From the NCBI GenBank assembly GCA_964474885.1, contig CAYYWO010000003.1:57337-121336 (forward strand): a stretch of DNA of 64,000 nt. The letters are read 5' to 3'. A program made the position numbers and the translations under genes. The stretch comes from Candidatus Hadarchaeota archaeon. GTDB lineage: Archaea > Hadarchaeota > Hadarchaeia > Hadarchaeales > JAWBSP01. This document shows positions 443 to 63,562 of this stretch, piece after piece. Positions within the stretch are counted from its first letter, which is position 1. Each line of letters starts with the position of its first letter. Below the pieces are notes generated by a model that saw nothing but the letters and a program-made list of their open reading frames with translations, had not been told where the DNA came from and did no database searches.

Positions 443-2347
443 TTACAGCTGGGAGAGGTTGGTGAGACTGTAATCTAGTAGCTCCATGTTGGTTTCGCTT
501 ATGATGGTGAACTGCTGCCCCATGTAAGTCACCTTTGACGTAGTTCGCTCCTCTGACTTGAGGAGTATGCCCACGCGGTTCAGTCGCCTTGTTATCACGG
601 TATCCGATACCACGTCACAAACTTCTCCTCTAAATGTGGCCTGCCCTTCTAGGTGGATTGTTACTACGACGACAAAGGCCTCAACGGGCTGGCCCTTCAC
701 CACGACGGTCTCGGTTCCCACCACTTCGTACTGGCAAGTGCACTGCCCGCTTAGGGTGATGTCTATCGGGTAGTAGTTGTGTACCGTCATGGTTGAGGTG
801 GAAGAGGAAGTGGCACCAACTTCCAGGGGGAAGGAAGCGATCTGGAGCGGGGGATCGTACTCTACCTCGGTGGTTTTGGAGCCTTGGTAGTAGTTGATCA
901 GGGCGAAAAGATAAGCAGCGGTGTCTGTGTCGGGTGAGTAGAAGATTTGATAGCTCTCCTCTCCACCTTCTATTTCAGACACAACTTTCCTGCACTTCTT
1001 TCCTCCTATTTCCACCATGCCCTTGTAACTAACCGTGACGGTTGCCGTCCCAGACTCCGGGAAGTTGTACTCCTGTCCTAGCTCTGGGATTCGGTTGGTG
1101 GATGAGAAACGGTATTTCAGCCAGTCAACATCCTCCAGCATGAGATCTTTGTATCCCAGCACACGGACGCTTTTCTGCTTCCCCCCGATCTCGATGTACA
1201 TGATGCCCTTTTGGGTGGCTTGAACAGTAGCGTCCACAATTTTCTCTTGGCCCGGAGCTACTTCAGCCGTTACGGTCTGGGTGCCTCCTGGGGATGCGAT
1301 CAAGTCCTCGGAGAAGGTCTGAGTAGAGGTACCGTTGTTCCGGATGGTTATTCTGACGGGTACGGAACTCCCAACGATAACAACTTCTGGGACCGAAATG
1401 TCCTTCACGAAAACCTCCGGTTTTTCCGAGACCTGCAGAATGCGACTGTAGTCACCAGCTTTAATGGTGTGGGAGCCTGTTGTTAGCTCGCCGAGGTTGA
1501 ATACGAAGATCTTCTCCTCCCCGGGTGCTATACTCTCGGCCCTCGGATAAGTAATTCTCTCACCGTCTACGAGGATTTCGGGCTTGTACTGACCGGTATC
1601 GTTACCGACGTTTTTCACGACCACCGTGGCCTGAGCTTCACCTACATAGGCGAAGGAGGGCACCATGAGATCCTCGATGCTGAACTCCGGTCTCGACTCC
1701 TCTACAGTTATCTTGACTGGGGACCCAACGTAGTTTTCGATCGTCACATCGAACTTGCCCGCTTCTGTTGGTGTGAACCTGAATGATATCATCCTCGTGG
1801 CTTTCGGGCCGATCGTCACGGGGTATCTCTGATGGATGTCTTGGGCTCCGATGTGTAGAACACCCGAGTATGAACCCTCCATCTCCCCTTCATTGACCAC
1901 CTCTATGCACGCCACTACTTCCTTTCCCACAATCGCCCTAGAGGGGATATCGATCTTGGTCACCTTGAATGATGGGGGTGTGGGTTCGTGTACGCTGAAG
2001 CTGATAGGCGCAACCTCAGGAGCTACAACCTCGAAGGATCCGGCTTGCATTGGGATGTATTCAAAATCCACAAGCAAGACTTGTCCAGCATTCTCAACTT
2101 CTACTGACTTTGTCAGTTCCTCTCCCCCTATACTGATACTCACGTCAATCCAACCTGTTTTAAGGGCTTTGACTTTGGCGGTCACGTAAACCTTAGATCC
2201 CACAGGTGTGTCCTCCGGGTACACTTTTAGCTCCATGACCTCATAACTTGCTTTCTCAGTTACAGGTTGCTCGGGTTTCAGGAAAAGGAAGTACGCTGCC
2301 ACGCCCAGGATCAGGACGACAACAATTGCAGGCACTGCCTTATTCAT
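443..2347 (-). CDS. Secreted or membrane-anchored protein with multiple CARDB-like repeats (adhesin or S-layer-associated-like).
   Basis: The start is at M41 of the track ORF ('MNKAVPAIVVVLILGVAAYFLF', an N-terminal TM or signal). Repeats such as 'VVNEGEMEG', 'VKNVGNDTG' and 'IRNNGTSTQTF' are typical of CARDB domains. Confidence 0.5.
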   Translation of the reverse strand: MNKAVPAIVVVLILGVAAYFLFLKPEQPVTEKASYEVMELKVYPEDTPVGSKVYVTAKVKALKTGWIDVSISIGGEELTKSVEVENAGQVLLVDFEYIPMQAGSFEVVAPEVAPISFSVHEPTPPSFKVTKIDIPSRAIVGKEVVACIEVVNEGEMEGSYSGVLHIGAQDIHQRYPVTIGPKATRMISFRFTPTEAGKFDVTIENYVGSPVKITVEESRPEFSIEDLMVPSFAYVGEAQATVVVKNVGNDTGQYKPEILVDGERITYPRAESIAPGEEKIFVFNLGELTTGSHTIKAGDYSRILQVSEKPEVFVKDISVPEVVIVGSSVPVRITIRNNGTSTQTFSEDLIASPGGTQTVTAEVAPGQEKIVDATVQATQKGIMYIEIGGKQKSVRVLGYKDLMLEDVDWLKYRFSSTNRIPELGQEYNFPESGTATVTVSYKGMVEIGGKKCRKVVSEIEGGEESYQIFYSPDTDTAAYLFALINYYQGSKTTEVEYDPPLQIASFPLEVGATSSSTSTMTVHNYYPIDITLSGQCTCQYEVVGTETVVVKGQPVEAFVVVVTIHLEGQATFRGEVCDVVSDTVITRRLNRVGILLKSEERTTSKVTYMGQQFTIISETNMELLDYSLTNLSQL

Positions 2348-2394
2348 TTGTCTTTTCCCCCAAATACCTTTTAAGCTTTTTAAGGGAAAACAGA

Positions 2395-4854
2395 ATGTCA
2401 AAACGGATCCGTACTCAGAGGGCCTCCTTCCTCCTTGTAGTCTTTGCAGTCCTGGTTTACATAGCACTCTGTGCTATTTTCAATCCAGGGGTCCCAGCCA
2501 CTTCATATCTTCTCCCCGCTTGTGTCTTGGTTCTGGCCACAATTATGTACCTCAATGTGAACAGAGTTTCCGAGTTTGTCAGAGAGCACCCCAAAGAGGT
2601 GGTCATCGCCATCTTAATCGTGACCGCGTGTTTAGCGACGGGTCTTCCCAAACTAACCTTCAATGTCGAGCTCAGGTCATATTTGCCACCCAGCTATGAA
2701 TCGGCTAGGACGACACTGGAGGTGGAAAACATGCTGGGAGGTGTGAGCAGTGAGGTGATCCTGCTTTACTCGGACAATCTCTTAGATCCAGCGTGCGTTG
2801 CGGCCGCCCATAACCTACGTGTCGCTCTGGAGAATGAGCTTGATGGTTATCTCGTTGCAAGACTGTTCTGGTACCTTGAGCCCATCGAGCGGGAACTTGG
2901 GGAGAACTTTCCGACAGGCCCTGAGCTGGAGAACAGACTCCGGCAGTTGCTTTCAGATCCAACCATTTTGGGGGAAGTGGAGCCCCACATAAGGCGAGTT
3001 GAACCCGAGCTCGCTGAAAACTTTCGGATAGTCAGGGGAAAGGAGGGCAAGCAAGTAGCCAGGCTCGTGTACAGGGTGGCCAAAATGCCTAGCTGGGAGG
3101 AAATCTCTTACGCTAAGAAGCTGGAGCGGATCGTGAAATCCTGTGTGGAAGACTCCGGCTATGTATTCGAGGCGACGGTGGGTGGTGACCACTCGACATC
3201 TAAAGACTTGATGAGGACGATCGAGGAGGAGCGGATTTATCTCTTCGGTACAGCAGGAATCCTGGTCTCACTATGTCTCTTCCTCACCTTCAGAAAACCT
3301 AGGGACATTCTCCTCGCACTGTTCACCATCGGTCTAGCCATCGCCTGGGTGGTTTGTCTGATGGGGTGGCTGGGGATAGAGTTCTCACCCGTGGTTGTGG
3401 GGGTCTTCCCACTCCTCATAGGCTTGGGGATAGATTATTCGGTCTACATGAACTACAGGTACTCTGAGGAAAGGTTGAAAGGGAGAGGCCCGGGTCTTGC
3501 CGCTGGCTTGGCAATAGCCACGGTGGGGACGGCCATTTATCTATCATGTATGACTACCATGTTTGGTTATGGATCTTGGTTGACTTCCCCTATGGAGCCC
3601 TTGTTTGACTTCGGCGCACTGAGCATGGCAGGCATAGGATTCGCTTACATGCTTTCCGTAACGTTCTTGCCCTCCTGCAGGATCCTCTTAGACCGGGGTG
3701 TTCGGAAGGGAGAACTGGTAGACAGGTTCTCCGCTAGGGCACTTGAGACGGGCCTCTCCAAACTGGCAGTGGTCGTCGAACGTCATGCCAAATGGTTCTT
3801 GGTTGGAGCGGTGATCGTTACTCTACTGGCGGCCTACAGTGCGATGCATACCAGAACGGCTCTCGAATGGGAGAAGATGACCCCTCAGGGTATGGAGAGC
3901 CTTGAAACCTCGGACTTGTATCTCAAGCTGTGGCCGGAATACAATCCCATGGGTGCCATTCTTGTTATGGTCAAGGGAGACATAGCTTCTCCGGAAACTC
4001 TACGATGCATGGATCAGATACAGACTTATGCTCCTCAAAGGTGCAGGTATGTAACGGATGCGTGGAGCATCGTGGACTTTGTCAAACAGAAGAACGGTGG
4101 GATACTCCCGAGCACTAGAGAAAGGGTAGTTGAGATATTGTCGGAGCTAAGTGAACCGACCTACGCTTCCCTGATATCTCCCACCTACGACCGGACGATC
4201 ATGTTTATTACGACATACACGACTACCGATCAGGAAGTACTTGCTGCCACAGAAAACGTGAGGTACTTGGTGGAGAAGTACGGGCAAGTAGAGAACACGA
4301 AGTTCCTAGTCGGAGGACTGCCAGCCATCGGTGCAGATCTCTTGTCAGAATTGGTCCCCTCACAGCTGAGGACGACTCTTATAGCCCTAATCGGGTGCTT
4401 CCTCATCTTGTGGGCGGTGTTCCGGAACCCAAAGGAGGCCGGGATTTGTATGGTACCCGTCGTGCTCACGGTGGTCTGGGGACTGGGTATGTTCTGGCCT
4501 CTGGATATTCCCATAAATATCGTCACGGTTCTGGTTTCTGCAATCCTGATTGGTATTGGTATAGATTACGCGATCCATGTGCGCCACAGGTACGTGGAAG
4601 AGCTGAGCAAGGGGAGGAGTATAAAGCACGCCATCAGGGAGACCATGGTCAGGATAGGGGGAGCAGTCTTCGGTGCCGCGACGACCTCTCTGTCCGCTAT
4701 GGGCACCCTGATGGCCTCTAGGATGCCCGCGATTGCTGTTTTCGGGAAAATGATCGCCTTGGAGTTTGTAGCTTGTCTATGCGCGGTTTTCTTCGTGCTT
4801 CCGGCTTTGTTGGTCTGGCTGACCAAGAGAGGGAGCATACGTGTAACCACTTGA
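2395..4854 (+). CDS. MMPL/RND-superfamily membrane transporter.
   Basis: The start is trimmed to M50 ('MSKRIRTQRASFLLVVFAVLVYIAL'). There are two hydrophobic TM bundles separated by large soluble loops, and a 'GIDYSVYMNYRY' motif typical of the MMPL/SSD family. Confidence 0.6.
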   Translation: MSKRIRTQRASFLLVVFAVLVYIALCAIFNPGVPATSYLLPACVLVLATIMYLNVNRVSEFVREHPKEVVIAILIVTACLATGLPKLTFNVELRSYLPPSYESARTTLEVENMLGGVSSEVILLYSDNLLDPACVAAAHNLRVALENELDGYLVARLFWYLEPIERELGENFPTGPELENRLRQLLSDPTILGEVEPHIRRVEPELAENFRIVRGKEGKQVARLVYRVAKMPSWEEISYAKKLERIVKSCVEDSGYVFEATVGGDHSTSKDLMRTIEEERIYLFGTAGILVSLCLFLTFRKPRDILLALFTIGLAIAWVVCLMGWLGIEFSPVVVGVFPLLIGLGIDYSVYMNYRYSEERLKGRGPGLAAGLAIATVGTAIYLSCMTTMFGYGSWLTSPMEPLFDFGALSMAGIGFAYMLSVTFLPSCRILLDRGVRKGELVDRFSARALETGLSKLAVVVERHAKWFLVGAVIVTLLAAYSAMHTRTALEWEKMTPQGMESLETSDLYLKLWPEYNPMGAILVMVKGDIASPETLRCMDQIQTYAPQRCRYVTDAWSIVDFVKQKNGGILPSTRERVVEILSELSEPTYASLISPTYDRTIMFITTYTTTDQEVLAATENVRYLVEKYGQVENTKFLVGGLPAIGADLLSELVPSQLRTTLIALIGCFLILWAVFRNPKEAGICMVPVVLTVVWGLGMFWPLDIPINIVTVLVSAILIGIGIDYAIHVRHRYVEELSKGRSIKHAIRETMVRIGGAVFGAATTSLSAMGTLMASRMPAIAVFGKMIALEFVACLCAVFFVLPALLVWLTKRGSIRVTT

Positions 4855-5279
4855 AACACATTTACACACTCGGTTATGGGGGGAGGAAATGGGAGGAGTT
4901 CCTATCGCTGGTTCGCGAGCATGGAGTGAAGATGGTGATCGATGTTCGCGCCTTTCCTAAGTCGAAATACCCCGAATACTCCGCCCAGTCGATGGAAGAG
5001 AACCTGAGGAGAGCGGGCATCGGCTACGCTAGGATCCCTGAGCTTGGGGGCTATAGGAGAGGGGGTTACCAAGCCTACACTAGGACGGAGGAGTTCAAAA
5101 AGGGGGTGAAGATGCTGGAGGAGCTGGCAGGAAAGCAAACCTCGGTTGTGGTCTGTCTGGAGAGGGACCCCAAGGGTTGCCATCGCAGATTTATCGCAGA
5201 TGAGCTCGCGCGCAGGGGATGGAAGATCCTGCACATCCTGAAGAAGGGGGAAGTAATTGAGCATGCCGCTCTCCGCTGA
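4851..5279 (+). CDS. DUF488 family protein.
   Basis: 'IYTLGYGGRKWEEFLSLVREHGVKMVIDVRAFPKS' matches the DUF488 N-terminal signature. No ATG follows the MMPL stop; the start is probably TTG 4851 overlapping the MMPL stop. The track ORF is 4773..5279. Confidence 0.45.
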   Translation: MKHIYTLGYGGRKWEEFLSLVREHGVKMVIDVRAFPKSKYPEYSAQSMEENLRRAGIGYARIPELGGYRRGGYQAYTRTEEFKKGVKMLEELAGKQTSVVVCLERDPKGCHRRFIADELARRGWKILHILKKGEVIEHAALR

Positions 5280-6387
5280 AGAAATGCGTAGGCTGGATGA
5301 GGCAGCTGAGCGGGTAGGGATACCGCGAGTGTTACTGATGGAGAACGCAGGGGCCGCGGTGGCGAGGAGGGTGATCCAGCGGTTCGGGGCGAGGAAAGTT
5401 CTAGTCCTGGCGGGAACGGGAAACAATGGGGGAGATGGCATGGTGGCGGCGCGGCACCTGTCAAATCTCGGGTGTGAAGTCAGCGTTGTCTTGGTGGGCG
5501 AGCCTTCCGCCATAAGGACGCAAGAGGCTAGGTTGAACTGGGAGATCCTGTCGAGGCTTGAGAGAGTGAGGACCTCCGTCTTCAAGAACTTGGATGAAAT
5601 CACTCGTGCAATAGATCAGTCCGAGCTGATCTTGGATGCCATGCTGGGGACGGGTGTTAGAGGGGAGCTCAGAGAGCCATTCCTGTCGATCGTGAGGAAG
5701 GTGAACTCGTCCGGAAAACCAGTGGTAGCTGTGGACAGCCCAACTGGCTTGGATCCCACGTCGGGCCAGGTCTGCGGTGAGGCCATCAGGGCAACGATGA
5801 CCATCACCTTCCATTCGCCGAAGTCAGGACTGCCGCTGGTTAAGGATTACACGGGGGAGCTCTTGGTAGAGGACATCGGGATCCCTCATGAGCTCGAAAG
5901 AAGGGAAATAGGGAGGGAAGTTGAGCATACCAAGCCTGAGGCACCCGTTCTCGTATCGGCCTGCCTTCTAGGGGTGAACTGCAGGTACGACGGGGGGAAC
6001 TGTTACGAGGAGAAAGTTCTGAGGCATGTGCGGGGCAGACTTGTCATCCCAGTTTGCCCGGAGCAGCTTGGTGGGCTCCCCACTCCTAGGAGGCCTAACA
6101 GGCTCTTGGGCCCCGGATCAGAGGTCCTAGCGGGGAGGGCCAGAGTTGTGAACGACTTGGGGAAGGATGTCACGGAGAACTTCGTTCGGGGGGCTCAGGA
6201 GGTCCTCTCTATAGCCAAGCTCTTCAATGTCAGGGAGGCGATCCTGAAGTCGGGAAGCCCCTCCTGTGGGGTCGGGAGGGTGAAGCTCCCCGATGGAAGC
6301 TGGCTACGGGGAGATGGTGTGGCGGCTGCATGCTTGAAAAAGGAGGGCTTGAGGCTCATCACCGAGCATGAGATTTCTGGCTTCTGA
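5257..6387 (+). CDS. Fusion protein: N-terminal YjeF-N domain (NAD(P)H-hydrate epimerase) plus C-terminal DUF523.
   Basis: The N-terminal half has 'LVLAGTGNNGGDGMVAARHL', a YjeF-N Rossmann signature. The C-terminal ~150 aa has 'PVLVSACLLGVNCRYDGGN...SPSCG', typical of DUF523/COG1683. The two halves form a single continuous frame. Confidence 0.55.
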   Translation: MSMPLSAEEMRRLDEAAERVGIPRVLLMENAGAAVARRVIQRFGARKVLVLAGTGNNGGDGMVAARHLSNLGCEVSVVLVGEPSAIRTQEARLNWEILSRLERVRTSVFKNLDEITRAIDQSELILDAMLGTGVRGELREPFLSIVRKVNSSGKPVVAVDSPTGLDPTSGQVCGEAIRATMTITFHSPKSGLPLVKDYTGELLVEDIGIPHELERREIGREVEHTKPEAPVLVSACLLGVNCRYDGGNCYEEKVLRHVRGRLVIPVCPEQLGGLPTPRRPNRLLGPGSEVLAGRARVVNDLGKDVTENFVRGAQEVLSIAKLFNVREAILKSGSPSCGVGRVKLPDGSWLRGDGVAAACLKKEGLRLITEHEISGF

Positions 6388-6907
6388 GCTGAAGCAGATC
6401 CTCTGCTCTATTTTGATTCTAGCCATTGCGGTCTCGGGCCTCAGCCTGCACCGCTTGACAGTCTTTTCCCTTCCTCTTGTGTTGGGCTTCTTCCTGCACG
6501 AGATGTCCCACAAGTGGATGGCCCGCAGGTACGGTTTCTTCTCGGTTTACTCATGGTGGCCTCCCGGCTTGCTATTTGCTTTGTTCTTGGGTCTGGCCTC
6601 TGGGGGAGAGGTGATTTTCGCAGCGCCCGGAGCAGTGGTCATCCTGAGCAGCTTCTTTTCCAAGGATCAAGCGGGGAAGATAGCCCTTGCAGGCCCCTTC
6701 ATGAACGTGTTGCTAGCAGCCATCTTTTACCCCCTTGGCTCCCTGCTGGGGGAGCTGGCTCTCCAGGGTTTCTACATAAACCTGTGGCTGGCCGTCTTCA
6801 ACCTCCTCCCCTTCCCCCCTCTGGACGGCTACAAGGTCTTTCACTGGAGCCCCTTGCTGTGGGCACTCGTCGAAATACCCCTCCTTTCACTACTCTTCCT
6901 CAGCTAG
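6368..6907 (+). CDS. Small M50-family (site-2 protease-like) membrane metalloprotease.
   Basis: The HExxH motif 'FLHEMSHKW' sits in a TM helix. A downstream 'NLLPFPPLDG' motif and a polytopic hydrophobic profile are also present. Confidence 0.5.
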   Translation: MRFLASELKQILCSILILAIAVSGLSLHRLTVFSLPLVLGFFLHEMSHKWMARRYGFFSVYSWWPPGLLFALFLGLASGGEVIFAAPGAVVILSSFFSKDQAGKIALAGPFMNVLLAAIFYPLGSLLGELALQGFYINLWLAVFNLLPFPPLDGYKVFHWSPLLWALVEIPLLSLLFLS

Positions 6908-8818: not shown

Positions 8819-10333
8819 CTAGCTCACTCTGATGCAATTCGCTGTGTGTGGAGGTATTATCAGCACATCCTTCCTCACCTTGACTTTGTTCCTCTCTATC
8901 CCAACGAGATCTGGATTCGATGGAGAGTTGGCCGCCCAGGGGCCCGCCGTACCCACGGTGAACGTCTCCCGCGCTTCCTCTTTCAGTCGAATCGTGACGC
9001 TCTCGCTGTAACTGCGGTTGACGATGAACACGGAGGTTCCTCTCCTATCTTCAACCGCAGCTGCATCGACCACGGGAGCCCGGAGCGACCGCGTCTCTAT
9101 CTCGGGCGAGTTAACGCGAACCTCCAAAACAGTATCCCGCAGGTTCTCCGCATACATCCTAAAAACGACGCCGGGAGGGGCCAGGTACGCCCCAGATTCG
9201 TGGGTCACGATCGAACCCAGAGCGTTGATCATTTGCGCGTAGTTGGCACAAAGCAGATTTTTTATCCGGAGCAGGGAGTTCAACATACAGGCCGTATAGA
9301 GGCCCTCCGCCACCGTGTAGTTGCACCTCCGGTGCGAGGGCAGATCGTATCTGACATTCCACTCATCCAGACAGAGGGGTACCTCCACCTCCTCCTGCAC
9401 TCTGAGGAGCATGCGCTCGGTCTTTATGTTCCCTGTCACCACCCAGTAGAAGTTCTCCTCCGTGGGTTTGGGCCTCCAGTGCCAGAGCCTCATGACATCC
9501 GGAAAGTAATCGTGGATCGAGAGTGCATCGATCTCATGCCCGGCGATCTTCAGAAGCCTCCGATTCCAGTCCTTCCAGTTCAGGGGATTAAAGAGGGGGC
9601 GCAAGGGTTCAAAAAGAGGACGGAGTAGCAAGCAGGGCAGGAGTTGCGCCCAGACACTTTCTCCCCATGGGATGCCAAGCCCGCAGGCTATGAGCTTTAT
9701 GTCCGGGTCGACCCTCCGCATGGCCCTCGCGAATTTCAGGAATTTCTCGCCATATTTCTCAGGGGAGCAGGATCCCTTCTCTAGGGGCATCCACTGTTCG
9801 TTCCCGATGCACCACAGCTTCACACCCCATGGCTCTCTCCTCCCCATGGAAGCCCTGACCCTGCCCCACCTAGTGCTGGGATCCCCATTGCAGAACTCCA
9901 CCCACTCAGCAGCTTCCTCAGGGGTACCGGTTCCAGCGTTCACCGTAAGCATCGGTTCGGCCCCAACAGCTTCACAGAACATGAGGAACTCTTGGGTTCC
10001 GAACTGATAGCTCTCCGGCTTGCCTATCCCGGATCCTGACCACCTCCAGTAGTAATTCGGCTTGACGGGCCTGGACTTCCTGGGACCAATCCCAAACTTC
10101 CAGTGGTAGTAATCGGCGGCACACCCACCCGGGAAGCGGATGACCTGCGGCCTGATGGACTTGACAAGTTCGAGCACGTCCTTCCTGATCCCGCCCAGCC
10201 ACAGGTTTGAGGGGGGCTGGCTTGGGTCCCAAATCCCGCCGTAGATGTTGTCCCCTAGGTTCTCCACGAAGTGTCCCAGTATCATGGGGGTTTTCCACAA
10301 CCTGCCTCCCAGCTGGATCTTAGCCTCGATCAT
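8819..10333 (-). CDS. GH51 alpha-L-arabinofuranosidase-like glycoside hydrolase.
   Basis: 'IRFPGGCAADYYHWKFGIGP', 'WCIGNEQW' and 'LCLDEWNVRY' mirror the conserved GH51 blocks (IRYPGG.., WCLGNE, acid/base and nucleophile Glu regions). The start is trimmed to M46 ('MIEAKIQ'); the track N-terminus is low-complexity and overlaps the LmbE gene. Confidence 0.7.
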   Translation of the reverse strand: MIEAKIQLGGRLWKTPMILGHFVENLGDNIYGGIWDPSQPPSNLWLGGIRKDVLELVKSIRPQVIRFPGGCAADYYHWKFGIGPRKSRPVKPNYYWRWSGSGIGKPESYQFGTQEFLMFCEAVGAEPMLTVNAGTGTPEEAAEWVEFCNGDPSTRWGRVRASMGRREPWGVKLWCIGNEQWMPLEKGSCSPEKYGEKFLKFARAMRRVDPDIKLIACGLGIPWGESVWAQLLPCLLLRPLFEPLRPLFNPLNWKDWNRRLLKIAGHEIDALSIHDYFPDVMRLWHWRPKPTEENFYWVVTGNIKTERMLLRVQEEVEVPLCLDEWNVRYDLPSHRRCNYTVAEGLYTACMLNSLLRIKNLLCANYAQMINALGSIVTHESGAYLAPPGVVFRMYAENLRDTVLEVRVNSPEIETRSLRAPVVDAAAVEDRRGTSVFIVNRSYSESVTIRLKEEARETFTVGTAGPWAANSPSNPDLVGIERNKVKVRKDVLIIPPHTANCIRVS

Positions 10334-10922
10334 GTACTTCCCGGAAACTTTCGAAGGAGGAGAAGATTCTCCACCTCCCCTTGGTTGCGAGCGGGAGGAG
10401 AAAGGACCAGACGTACCATTGGCTCCTGTGGAACATGATTGCGCGCATCTTCTCTTTCCTGAAAGCACGTATGTCCACGCGGAGGTTCGGTCGAAGCGAG
10501 TGGTAGAGCCTGACTGGGCGGAAGCTCAGGGAAAGCTTCCCGACGAACAGGTGGTCCGGATGCAGGTAGTATGGGGTCTCGGGCTCAGGGGCGTAGATGA
10601 GATCGGGGGACTCCCTCCGGACGGACCGAACTATGGGCTGACCATCGTCCCGCTTCAGCTCCCCGTCCATCAACCCCAGAGGCCTTATCTCAATGTTGAG
10701 GAAGCGGGCGGCCGATTCGGCCTCCGCCCTCCTCCTTTTTCCGACATCCTTAAGGGGTTTTCCACCTGAAAGAGAGACTGCAAAATTCTCCGGGCACCCC
10801 TTCTGTCCATCGGTCACCAAGATTTCAACGACCTCATCCCCCCGGGCCAGATGCTTGAGCACCGTGCCCCCGACGAACAGTTCTAAATCGTCTGGATGAG
10901 GGGAGAGGACCACAACTTTCAT
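10320..10922 (-). CDS. LmbE/PIG-L family N-acetylglucosaminyl deacetylase.
   Basis: 'VVVLSPHPDDLELFVGGTVL...VTDG' at the N-terminus is the PIG-L/LmbE signature (HPDDE motif). Confidence 0.65.
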   Translation of the reverse strand: MKVVVLSPHPDDLELFVGGTVLKHLARGDEVVEILVTDGQKGCPENFAVSLSGGKPLKDVGKRRRAEAESAARFLNIEIRPLGLMDGELKRDDGQPIVRSVRRESPDLIYAPEPETPYYLHPDHLFVGKLSLSFRPVRLYHSLRPNLRVDIRAFRKEKMRAIMFHRSQWYVWSFLLPLATKGRWRIFSSFESFREVHDRG

Positions 10923-11776: not shown

Positions 11777-11798
11777 ATCAAAAGCCTCGCACTAGCTT

Positions 11799-12410
11799 AT
11801 GATGGCAACCGCTGGTTTTGACGAGGCTGGCAGGGGGCCGATTCTAGGGCCGATGGTCCTCTGCGGGGTCAGCTTTGCACGTGAGGTGCTCCCGGATCTG
11901 AAAAGAGCCGGGGTGAGGGACTCCAAGCAGGTCGGCCCGAAAAAGAGAGAAGACTTAGCCAAACTCATCCAGGGACTTGCCACAGACATCAGAGTGGTGG
12001 AGCTCTGGCCCAGGGAAATCGACGAGCTGAGGACCTGCAAGAACCTGAACGAGATAGAAGCGGAGGTCTTTGCCAGGATGATCGACGAGCTCCAGCCCGA
12101 GGTGGCATTCATAGACTCCCCCGATCCGAGACCGGAGCTCTTCCTCTTCAGAATGGAACGGTATCTGCGCAGTAAGCCTAAATTGGTCGTGGAGAACGGA
12201 GCCGACCGAAAATACGTGGAGGTCTCGGCGGCCTCAATAGTGGCTAAAGTGACCAGGGAGGCAAGGATACAGGAACTCCACCAAAAGTACGGGGATTTTG
12301 GGTCGGGTTACCTGACGGATCCAAAAACCGTCTCCTTCTTGAAAAAATGGTTGAGGGAGAAGGGGATGTATCCGAGTTTTGCTAGGAGGTCTTGGAAATT
12401 CTCTCTGTAA
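11799..12410 (+). CDS. rnhB: Ribonuclease HII.
   Basis: 'AGFDEAGRGPILGPMV' and 'IDSPD' are the RNase HII catalytic motifs. The length is about 203 aa. Confidence 0.8.
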   Translation: MMATAGFDEAGRGPILGPMVLCGVSFAREVLPDLKRAGVRDSKQVGPKKREDLAKLIQGLATDIRVVELWPREIDELRTCKNLNEIEAEVFARMIDELQPEVAFIDSPDPRPELFLFRMERYLRSKPKLVVENGADRKYVEVSAASIVAKVTREARIQELHQKYGDFGSGYLTDPKTVSFLKKWLREKGMYPSFARRSWKFSL

Positions 12411-39962: not shown

Positions 39963-39991
39963 CCGTATATCAACAAAGGGTTTAAAAAGCG

Positions 39992-40543
39992 ATGCGGACG
40001 AAAAATCTCTTTTTAACCGGTAGGCCTGGCTCGGGGAAAAGCAGCATAATCCAGAAGATCGTTGATGTGGTCTCCTCTCAGGGTCTAGATATTTGTGGTG
40101 TACTATGTCCAGAGATCCGAATAGGAGGAAAAAGAGTCGGTTTTAAAATAATAGAGCTCCGGACTCGTCAAGAGGACATTTTGGCCCATGTAGAGTTAAC
40201 GAATGGACCTCGCGTTGGGAAGTATAGGGTCAATTTGGTTGGAGTCGAGAAAATCGTGAGGGGGGCAATGAGTCTGATTGATGGCTCGGATATCATCGTT
40301 ATAGATGAGGTGGGTCCAATGGAGGTGACCAGTCAAGCCTTCAGAGCCTTCGTTCTAAAGAGCCTCGATAGTACGAAACCCGTTCTGGGGGCAATCCACA
40401 TGAGGACCCAAAGCGGTTTCATTGGAGGTATAAAAAGAAGATCGGATGTCCTGCTTCTGCATGTACAGCCCGAAAAGAGAGAGGAAATGTTTCAACGAGT
40501 TCTAGACATTGTTAAAGACATGCTAGACATTAAGGTAAGATGA
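39992..40543 (+). CDS. THEP1-family nucleoside triphosphatase.
   Basis: 'LFLTGRPGSGKSSII' (Walker A), 'IIVIDEVGPME' (Walker B), and a length of about 183 aa. Confidence 0.7.
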   Translation: MRTKNLFLTGRPGSGKSSIIQKIVDVVSSQGLDICGVLCPEIRIGGKRVGFKIIELRTRQEDILAHVELTNGPRVGKYRVNLVGVEKIVRGAMSLIDGSDIIVIDEVGPMEVTSQAFRAFVLKSLDSTKPVLGAIHMRTQSGFIGGIKRRSDVLLLHVQPEKREEMFQRVLDIVKDMLDIKVR

Positions 40544-59203: not shown

Positions 59204-59239
59204 CAGTTTTAGAAGTCTAGGTTAAGAATAAAGATTTGT

Positions 59240-59313
59240 GCGGCCGTAGTCTAGCCAGGTTAGGACTCAGGCTCCCCGGGCCTGATGCGCGGGTTCAAAT
59301 CCCGCCGGCCGCA
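59240..59313 (+). tRNA. tRNA with a non-canonical anticodon loop 'UCCCCGG'. The best reading is Gly(CCC) with C at position 33.
   Basis: A hand-folded cloverleaf: acceptor GCGGCCG/CGGCCGC, D arm, anticodon stem CAGGC/GCCUG, T arm GCGGG-UUCAAAU-CCCGC, discriminator A, followed by T5. Confidence 0.65.
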
Positions 59314-59341
59314 TAGTTTTTGAGAAGTAGAAGATGAGTAG

Positions 59342-63437: not shown

Positions 63438-63512
63438 GGGGCCGTGGGGTAGCCTGGACTAGCCTACCAGCTTGGGGTGCTGGTGACCTGGGTTCGAATC
63501 CCGGCGGCCCCA
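63438..63512 (+). tRNA. tRNA-Pro (anticodon GGG).
   Basis: A hand-folded cloverleaf: acceptor GGGGCCG/CGGCCCC, anticodon stem CCAGC/GCUGG with loop UUGGGGU (U33, G37), T loop UUCGAAU. Confidence 0.8.
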
Positions 63513-63562
63513 CCTCAAAAAGTAAAGAAAAAAATATGGATGGTTTGTTTTGAGATCGGTAG

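Follow-up and report, generated by a model that had tools for sequence, protein, structure and literature searches.

The N-terminal domain of the YjeF/Nnr proteins (YjeF_N) is an epimerase of NAD(P)HX, the hydrated form of NAD(P)H; it is fused to the dehydratase domain YjeF_C in 97% of the prokaryote genomes having both genes, and to a pyridoxine/pyridoxamine phosphate oxidase (PPOX) in plants (PMC5938422). In E. coli YjeF, the K192A substitution removes at least 95% of the epimerase activity (PMC5938422). With a [4Fe-4S] cluster, the enzyme TudS desulfurates 4-thiouracil, 4-thiouridine (s4U) and, by preference, 4-thio-uridine monophosphate (4-thio-UMP) via a [4Fe-5S] intermediate (PMC10611767). 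Crystal structures (6z92, 6z93, 6z94, 6z96 and 6zw9), kinetics and mutagenesis are available for this family: Cys10, Cys43 and Cys104 bind the cluster, Glu45, Ser101 and Ser103 aid catalysis and, in docking models, Arg17 touches the phosphate, Tyr18 and Pro102 the base and Tyr110 the ribose (PMC10611767). RudS, a fusion of TudS to the domain of unknown function DUF1722, takes s4U off tRNA (PMC11417400). In the TudS/RudS literature, which reports 58.9% standalone TudS and 40.1% DUF1722 fusions, a YjeF_N partner is not mentioned (PMC10611767, PMC11417400), and neither is a TudS partner in the epimerase literature (PMC5938422). Here, we analyzed a gene joining these two families in a stretch of 64,000 nucleotides (nt) from Candidatus Hadarchaeota archaeon (GenBank assembly GCA_964474885.1, contig CAYYWO010000003.1, positions 57,337 to 121,336), hereafter called the window.

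A single-frame fusion of two complete domains

An earlier note on this DNA, which took YjeF_N to be almost always standalone or fused to YjeF_C (the latter in agreement with the 97% above), had described positions 5257-6387 as a single-frame fusion of YjeF_N with DUF523. We confirmed this fusion. The open reading frame 5257..6387 (+) counts 376 amino acids (aa) from TTG 5257 without any interruption and carries two full-length Pfam domains. The most plausible start of the fused gene is ATG 5263, since the alignment with homologues begins at 'ITAEEM' and the next ATG (5284) lies downstream of that point; the gene then spans 5263..6387 (+) and encodes 374 aa, with a TGA stop at 6385-6387 and a Shine-Dalgarno-like G-rich stretch (AAGGGGGAAG) about 10-15 nt upstream of the ATG. 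The YjeF_N domain (Pfam envelope 5335..5829, +) matched PF03853 over residues 27-191 and profile positions 4-169 of 169, with an E-value of 5.6e-47 and 160.3 bits vs a curated cut-off of 24.9. The NCBIfam model of the NAD(P)H-hydrate epimerase, TIGR00197, spanned 5272-5886 and scored 193.5 bits vs a cut-off of 88.6. The TudS-type [4Fe-4S] desulfidase domain (5947..6372, +), supported by Pfam, phmmer and Foldseek, matched the complete profile of PF04463, formerly DUF523 (positions 1-141 of 141), over residues 231-372, with an E-value of 2.6e-38 and 131.6 bits vs a curated cut-off of 34.7; the protein ends four residues past this envelope. The motifs CLLGVNCRYDGG and SPSCG were both found in the fused protein, and the assignment of its C-terminal part to DUF523 is correct.

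Such a frame could also arise by a frameshift, by mis-assembly or from a chimeric contig joining two genes, and the earlier note had raised the possibility of a frameshift or sequencing error. We considered this only on account of the rarity of the architecture, and nothing we found spoke for it. We observed neither a stop nor a change of frame at the junction of the two domains, and the GC content of the two halves is similar (0.585 vs 0.598). In addition, the uninterrupted fusion was read straight from the DNA at L001, L002 and L081-L091, and the architecture recurs in 59 clusters that share 49-100% identity and come from independent assemblies in four data sources. The probability of an artefact is thus negligible, and the fusion of YjeF_N and PF04463 is genuine.

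These 59 clusters at 90% identity (P0001-P0059) were recovered by a word-indexed search of 5.8 billion proteins, all with PF03853 and PF04463 in the same order. They measure 345-401 aa where complete, come from NCBI, JGI, ENA and Logan assemblies and, where named, belong to Hadarchaeales, Hadarchaeaceae or Hadesarchaea; the survey of related archaea suggested in the earlier note thus found the same fusion repeatedly. An exhaustive phmmer search of 1.84 billion representatives at 50% identity, which could miss fusions scoring below about 145 bits in total, returned one two-domain match (P0058, 342 bits), followed at 219 bits by a protein with YjeF_N only. Among the 80 best loci from a scan of 185,579 GTDB species-representative genomes, only three carried the fusion (L001-L003), all of them Hadarchaeota-type metagenome-assembled genomes. 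Within this lineage, the fusion was kept through at least three diverged subgroups sharing about 50% identity. Overall, the architecture is rare and clade-restricted, and it appears to be undescribed as far as these searches show.

Candidates for independent or reverse-order fusions were rejected: those with two matching stretches or with YjeF_N in a C-terminal position were TudS-TudS, YjeF_N-YjeF_N or TP_methylase-YjeF_N proteins or partial Nnr, and the matches reaching residue 282 in Asgard and Archaeoglobus loci were ordinary YjeF_N-YjeF_C proteins. Some of these architectures are unusual by themselves (P0136, P0168, P0181, P0183, P0193 and P0124), including a tandem TudS-TudS of 287 aa (P0136), tandem YjeF_N-YjeF_N proteins of 381-419 aa and the TP_methylase-YjeF_N protein P0124. 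Furthermore, five YjeF_N proteins of 412-499 aa from Nitrososphaerota and Caldarchaeales (P0075, P0083, P0098, P0099 and P0105) possess a C-terminal region of about 200-270 residues. This region had no Pfam match in P0075, P0083 and P0098, and that of P0098 showed no BLASTP similarity to the YjeF_C domain in P0119. Such regions may represent a further non-canonical partner, or else a dehydratase domain that has degenerated strongly. In one Omnitrophota bacterium (L071), a standalone TudS (1673-2107) and a standalone YjeF_N (9938-10627) lie about 8 kb apart on the same strand, a proximity that is probably coincidental.

Conserved catalytic residues and an altered substrate pocket

We then compared the catalytic residues of both halves with those of characterized relatives. 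The YjeF_N half contains GTGNNGGDG (5413-5439, +), D125 (5635-5637, +), D158-x-P-T161 (5734-5745, +) and the catalytic K187 (5821-5823, +). Across 57 fused sequences, the GxGNNGGDG, DAxLGTG (DAMLGTG..G.LR.P) and D158-x-P-T161-G motifs are invariant, as is K187 within TFHSPKSG. We take GxGNNGGDG, DAxxGTG and D-x-P-S/T-G to be nucleotide- and K+-binding motifs (HAMAP MF_01966; TM0922 and AIBP structures). Thr161 stands in place of the usual Ser, likewise in the neighbouring archaeal epimerases P0078 and P0119. K187 is the counterpart of K192 of E. coli YjeF, to which it was matched via the mutagenesis-primer motif ITFIAL-K-PG(LL). This half shares 47-54% identity with bifunctional and standalone epimerases of archaea, and the N-terminal half of an AlphaFold2 model superposes on TM0922, yeast YNL200c and mouse AIBP in Foldseek. 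Taken together, residues and model suggest that the N-terminal half looks like a competent enzyme of its family.

The earlier note had regarded the function of DUF523 as uncharacterized. This view is outdated, since PF04463, which Pfam now names '2-thiouracil desulfurase', is TudS, with the structures, kinetics, mutagenesis and RudS fusion mentioned above. The TudS half matched 6z92 in phmmer with an E-value of 1e-18, and its AlphaFold2 model matched 6z92, 6z96 and 6zw9 in Foldseek with target-normalized template modelling (TM) scores of 0.82-0.84 and root-mean-square deviations of 1.7-1.8 A. It also shares 48-61% identity with standalone TudS proteins from bacteria and from other archaea. The predicted cluster ligands C234 (5962-5964, +), C265 (6055-6057, +) and C335 (6265-6267, +) match Cys10, Cys43 and Cys104 of TudS. 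The predicted catalytic residues E267 (6061-6063, +), S332 and S334 (6256-6264, +) match Glu45, Ser101 and Ser103, and R276 (6088-6090, +), nine residues past the catalytic Glu, corresponds to the catalytic Arg60 of RudS_KT. All these residues are invariant in the 57 fused sequences. The predicted phosphate and base contacts R241 and Y242 (5983-5988, +) and P333 match Arg17, Tyr18 and Pro102, contacts that come from docking models and not from mutagenesis; R241 and P333 are invariant, and Y242 is His or Trp in some subgroups. On these alignments and on the predicted fold, the C-terminal half likewise looks like a competent enzyme of its family.

One part of the pocket differs. The hairpin after SPSCG (about residues 105-124 of TudS_A) bears Tyr110, which stacks on the ribose in the docking models. 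Among 12 standalone TudS relatives sampled from bacteria and archaea, 9 keep this hairpin as 'G.G.(I/V)YDGTFSGK'. We aligned it in the TudS halves, including those of P0032, P0042, P0050, P0055, P0057 and P0058. In the subgroup of the window, the hairpin (6268-6300) is shortened, with Lys341 (6283-6285, +) or a gap at the position of Tyr110. In most of a second subgroup, with fused proteins of 390 aa, the Tyr is replaced by His, and this includes the standalone TudS of L021. In two further fused groups, a 360-aa subgroup and P0057/P0058, the hairpin is deleted outright (about 20 residues). From this comparison, the ribose-side wall of the pocket is predicted to be relaxed across the clade. As the standalone TudS of L021 shows the change as well, the YjeF_N domain does not simply make up for it. 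The counterpart of this loop in RudS is extended and mobile, which, as its authors propose, opens the active site to tRNA and tunes the substrate size (PMC11417400). With its eroded hairpin, this clade is one in which an altered substrate scope of TudS may be sought.

Probable domain autonomy, the dehydratase and the gene neighbourhoods

To describe the relation between the two halves, we considered the linker, the structure model and natural single-domain derivatives. The linker (RREIGREVEHTKPEAP; 5899..5946, +), delimited by alignments and by lower model confidence, varies from about 17 to 30 aa among homologues and is poorly conserved in sequence. The AlphaFold2 model, built on an alignment of the 57 sequences, had a mean predicted local distance difference test (pLDDT) score of 91.7 and a predicted TM score (pTM) of only 0.62, with a pLDDT of about 70 for residues 221-230 in the linker. 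A high pLDDT combined with a low pTM describes two confidently modelled domains without a fixed mutual orientation.

Two loci present each domain alone. L100 and L021 are one orthologous locus, in which the flanking DUF89 and TrmO genes are 90% and 85% identical. The order is DUF89, a central gene and TrmO on the minus strand (L100 699-2827; L021 5520-7416), and the central gene encodes only YjeF_N in L100 and only TudS in L021. L100 codes only for residues 1-224 of the fused protein, with 84% identity to P0038, and its tail '…EAALLRRNGTSG' is similar to the very end of the TudS domain on the C-terminal side. L021 codes only for residues 244-391, with 85% identity, and its head 'MRSDPRMSEIK' matches the leader of the fused protein. 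Our neighbour-joining trees are rough, so that nesting claims rest on pairwise identities and synteny; on this basis, L100 and L021 look like reciprocal in-frame domain deletions from a fused ancestor, and they constitute a natural experiment on domain autonomy. Each half survives alone, because each of these loci keeps one intact and conserved domain. Another standalone YjeF_N, followed by EMG1/Nep1, is present in L092, and a more distant one in L004. Overall, the variable linker, the modelled orientation and the natural deletions argue for autonomous domains.

We also searched for the dehydratase. The fused protein has no PF01256 match, and scored 102 bits vs a cut-off of 703 with the bifunctional Nnr model NF007856. 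The earlier note had suggested looking elsewhere in the genome for a separate YjeF_C. None was present in the 64 kb window or within 8-10 kb of the fusion loci; the search succeeded in another fusion-bearing assembly, GCA_038845025.1, which has the fusion on JAWBQX010000001.1 (L084) and a standalone YjeF_C of 290 aa (P0374) on JAWBQX010000004.1 (L095). Abundant standalone PF01256 proteins, about 290-295 aa long, carry the names Hadesarchaea, Hadarchaeota or Hadarchaeales, and other Hadesarchaea have a conventional YjeF_N-YjeF_C protein (P0119). The idea that TudS has displaced the dehydratase was rejected for GCA_038845025.1, where both genes are present. These sequences suggest that in Hadarchaeota the dehydratase is typically a separate gene and that the free C-terminus of the epimerase gained TudS. 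In two assemblies, the standalone YjeF_C of Hadarchaeota is directly followed by the ribosomal protein L40e (L095 4001-5021, L098 4001-5036), which makes this a conserved gene pair.

In the window, the fused gene is the third of four co-directional, overlapping genes (2248-6907, +). It is preceded by an MMPL/RND-type membrane transporter gene (2248..4854, +; first in the array, with a true start probably downstream of 2248) and, directly upstream, by a DUF488 gene (4851..5279, +; probable start TTG 4851, stop TGA 5277-5279), and is followed by a gene for a small Peptidase_M50-like membrane protein (6368..6907, +). The overlaps are TTGA at 4851-4854 between the MMPL and DUF488 genes, 17 nt between DUF488 and the fusion, and 20 nt between the end of the fusion and the ATG of the M50-like gene. 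From these overlaps, the MMPL-DUF488-fusion arrangement is predicted to be translationally coupled and operon-like. The same order is kept in the closest subgroup (L081-L083; 51% and 59% identity), and the M50-like neighbour is not. The literature gave no functional information on DUF488. Elsewhere in the 64 kb window, we found homologues of RNase HII (11796-12407) and NTPase_1 (39986-40540) and no second YjeF_N or TudS, DUF89, SufBC, ThiS, NcsA-like gene or ThiI. The sole Rfam and ARAGORN matches were tRNA-Gly(CCC) at 59239-59314 and tRNA-Pro(GGG) at 63438-63514.

The neighbours differ in the other subgroups. In the 360-aa subgroup, the upstream order is Thiamine_BP (PF01910), a DUF89/ARMT1-like phosphatase and the fusion, and downstream lie a Pyr_redox_2 flavoprotein, SufC, SufBD, ThiS/SAMP and an NcsA/TtuA-like ATP_bind_3 protein, with ThiI farther on. 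This compact sulfur and Fe-S cluster (L084 6870-16432, also L085-L087) includes DUF3786, RNase HII and NTPase_1 before ThiI. L002 and L003 also have DUF89 directly before the fusion, and the split loci L021 and L100 have it before their single-domain gene. DUF89/ARMT1-like phosphatases form a family implicated in metabolite damage control, and this recurrent neighbour gives modest support to a general theme of damage control and salvage. In the 390-aa subgroup, a DtxR/FeoA regulator and FeoB are found upstream and a second DtxR-family regulator downstream (L001 7352-12328; L088 and L089 5376-10413), which suggests iron-responsive expression. No NAD-metabolism gene was a conserved neighbour in the fusion loci examined. 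Overall, the neighbours agree with an Fe-S enzyme acting in the metabolism of thionucleotides and sulfur, with ThiI as a source of the s4U that would give rise to 4-thio-UMP.

Proposed role and comparison with known systems

Taken together, these results lead us to favor, with moderate confidence, a bifunctional housekeeping protein in which a flexible tether joins two catalytic modules that would be autonomous and act independently. The N-terminal module would interconvert the R and S hydrates of NAD(P)H, and the separate ADP-dependent YjeF_C dehydratase would then restore NAD(P)H. In the C-terminal module, C234, C265 and C335 would ligate a [4Fe-4S] cluster, and the fourth iron would bind the substrate, a compound of the 4-thiouracil type, through its thiocarbonyl sulfur; the most likely substrates are 4-thio-UMP, s4U or 4-thiouracil from tRNA turnover. 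Glu267, Ser332 and Ser334 would activate water, and the sulfur would stay on the cluster as a transient [4Fe-5S] until its release as sulfide, leaving a normal uracil compound. The fusion may have arisen once in the Hadarchaeota lineage, after the epimerase parted from the dehydratase, and its benefit would be the co-expression of two clean-up activities and not substrate channelling.

Several points weigh against this proposal. What the epimerase does physiologically is itself a matter of debate (PMC5938422). The eroded hairpin indicates that the preferred substrate may differ from the canonical 4-thio-UMP, and the persistence of the fusion through diverged subgroups hints at a selective benefit beyond chance. 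Because of this persistence and of the loss of the hairpin across the clade, we also considered a functional coupling in which YjeF_N supplies to the Fe-S site, or recognizes for it, a substrate that resembles a nucleotide and is thiolated or damaged by sulfide. We regard such a coupling as improbable; if true, it would reveal the long-suspected second function of this epimerase, or else a new class of repair by which sulfidic anaerobes mend sulfur damage to nucleotides or cofactors.

By analogy with RudS, in which DUF1722 makes TudS an eraser of s4U in tRNA, YjeF_N might instead be a specificity or recruitment module that turns the TudS site to another thiolated substrate, which might be larger: for example, an oligonucleotide, a tRNA or a dinucleotide. 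The authors of the TudS work state that added domains may change substrate preference, the ribose-side hairpin is eroded or deleted specifically in this clade, the equivalent RudS loop is implicated in substrate size, and ThiI, the NcsA-like gene and ThiS lie near the fusion in one subgroup, as TrmO does at the related split loci. However, every epimerase motif and the catalytic lysine are kept, which a mere binding module would not need, and YjeF_N is not known to bind RNA. Moreover, the Tyr to His change of the hairpin in the standalone TudS of L021 is independent of the fusion, TudS survives there after deletion of YjeF_N, and AlphaFold2 gave no confident interdomain packing. We therefore consider this retargeting, the main rival of our proposal, possible but unlikely.

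The earlier note had proposed that DUF523 may act in nicotinamide-nucleotide or metabolite repair, or at least be functionally coupled to it. As a loose theme of repair and salvage this is reasonable, but the nicotinamide role is unsupported. In such a role, the TudS-like domain would take a sulfide adduct off NAD(P)H, or would be an ATP-independent Fe-S dehydratase of NAD(P)HX fed by the epimerase. It does sit where YjeF_C normally does, fusions often join steps of one pathway, and the hosts appear anaerobic from their gene content. A three-Cys [4Fe-4S] cluster with a free iron can also activate a leaving group, as in aconitase-type chemistry. Nevertheless, a conventional YjeF_C is still present in a fusion-bearing genome, the base and phosphate residues of TudS are conserved together with the catalytic Glu and Ser, and the domain is close in sequence to standalone TudS of bacteria and other archaea. 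The neighbours speak for sulfur, Fe-S and tRNA thiolation functions and not for NAD metabolism, and TudS persists alone after the loss of the epimerase half, so that we hold a nicotinamide role to be very improbable. We judge it just as improbable that the YjeF_N half is a non-catalytic scaffold or oligomerization domain and that only the TudS half is enzymatic. The YjeF_N fold is a protein-interaction domain in eukaryotic Edc3, and our model matches 3d3k with a target-normalized TM score of 0.69; in addition, NADHX epimerizes spontaneously and the need for an epimerase has been questioned (PMC5938422). Against this stand the strictly conserved nucleotide and K+ motifs and K187, the TIGR00197 score, the identity to archaeal bifunctional and standalone epimerases, and the loci L100 and L092, in which the YjeF_N half is kept alone. 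Overall, the fusion gives no evidence of a new mechanism.

Current annotations name these proteins only 'NAD(P)H-hydrate epimerase' or 'hydroxyethylthiazole kinase-like protein yjeF' and miss their Fe-S desulfidase half altogether. As both families are characterized, the main value of the finding lies in annotation and comparison. Nnr/YjeF (T. maritima TM0922, PDB 2ax3 and 3rss; E. coli YjeF) shares the N-terminal YjeF_N with its motifs and catalytic lysine and a homologous linker start, 'IGIP.E.E', and gave the best PDB sequence match (E 3.9e-29 over residues 9-214). In contrast, its ADP/ATP-dependent PF01256 dehydratase is absent here and an Fe-S desulfidase is found instead. TudS (6z92, 6z96; PMC10611767) shares the fold, 38% identity, the three Cys and Glu45, Ser101, Ser103, Arg17, Tyr18 and Pro102, whereas here the domain is fused behind YjeF_N, with a shorter hairpin after Cys104 and Lys for Tyr110. 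Like RudS (PMC11417400), the fused protein combines a TudS catalytic domain with an extra domain, has the same set of Cys, Glu, Ser and Arg and shows a remodelled loop past the third Cys. Unlike RudS, whose partner is a C-terminal DUF1722, its partner is an N-terminal YjeF_N; no Pfam match to DUF1722 was found in the fused protein, the loop is shortened where that of RudS is extended, and a tRNA-binding element is not evident. YjeF_N is a TudS partner distinct from DUF1722 and falls into the roughly 1% of architectures left undescribed in the TudS/RudS papers. The plant epimerase-PPOX fusion (Arabidopsis At5g49970; PMC5938422) likewise joins the epimerase to another salvage enzyme, with the dehydratase encoded separately, but its partner is a eukaryotic FMN-dependent oxidase and not an archaeal Fe-S desulfidase. 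Beside PPOX, TudS is apparently a new non-dehydratase partner of the epimerase, and adds to the debate on the retention and moonlighting of this enzyme (PMC5938422).

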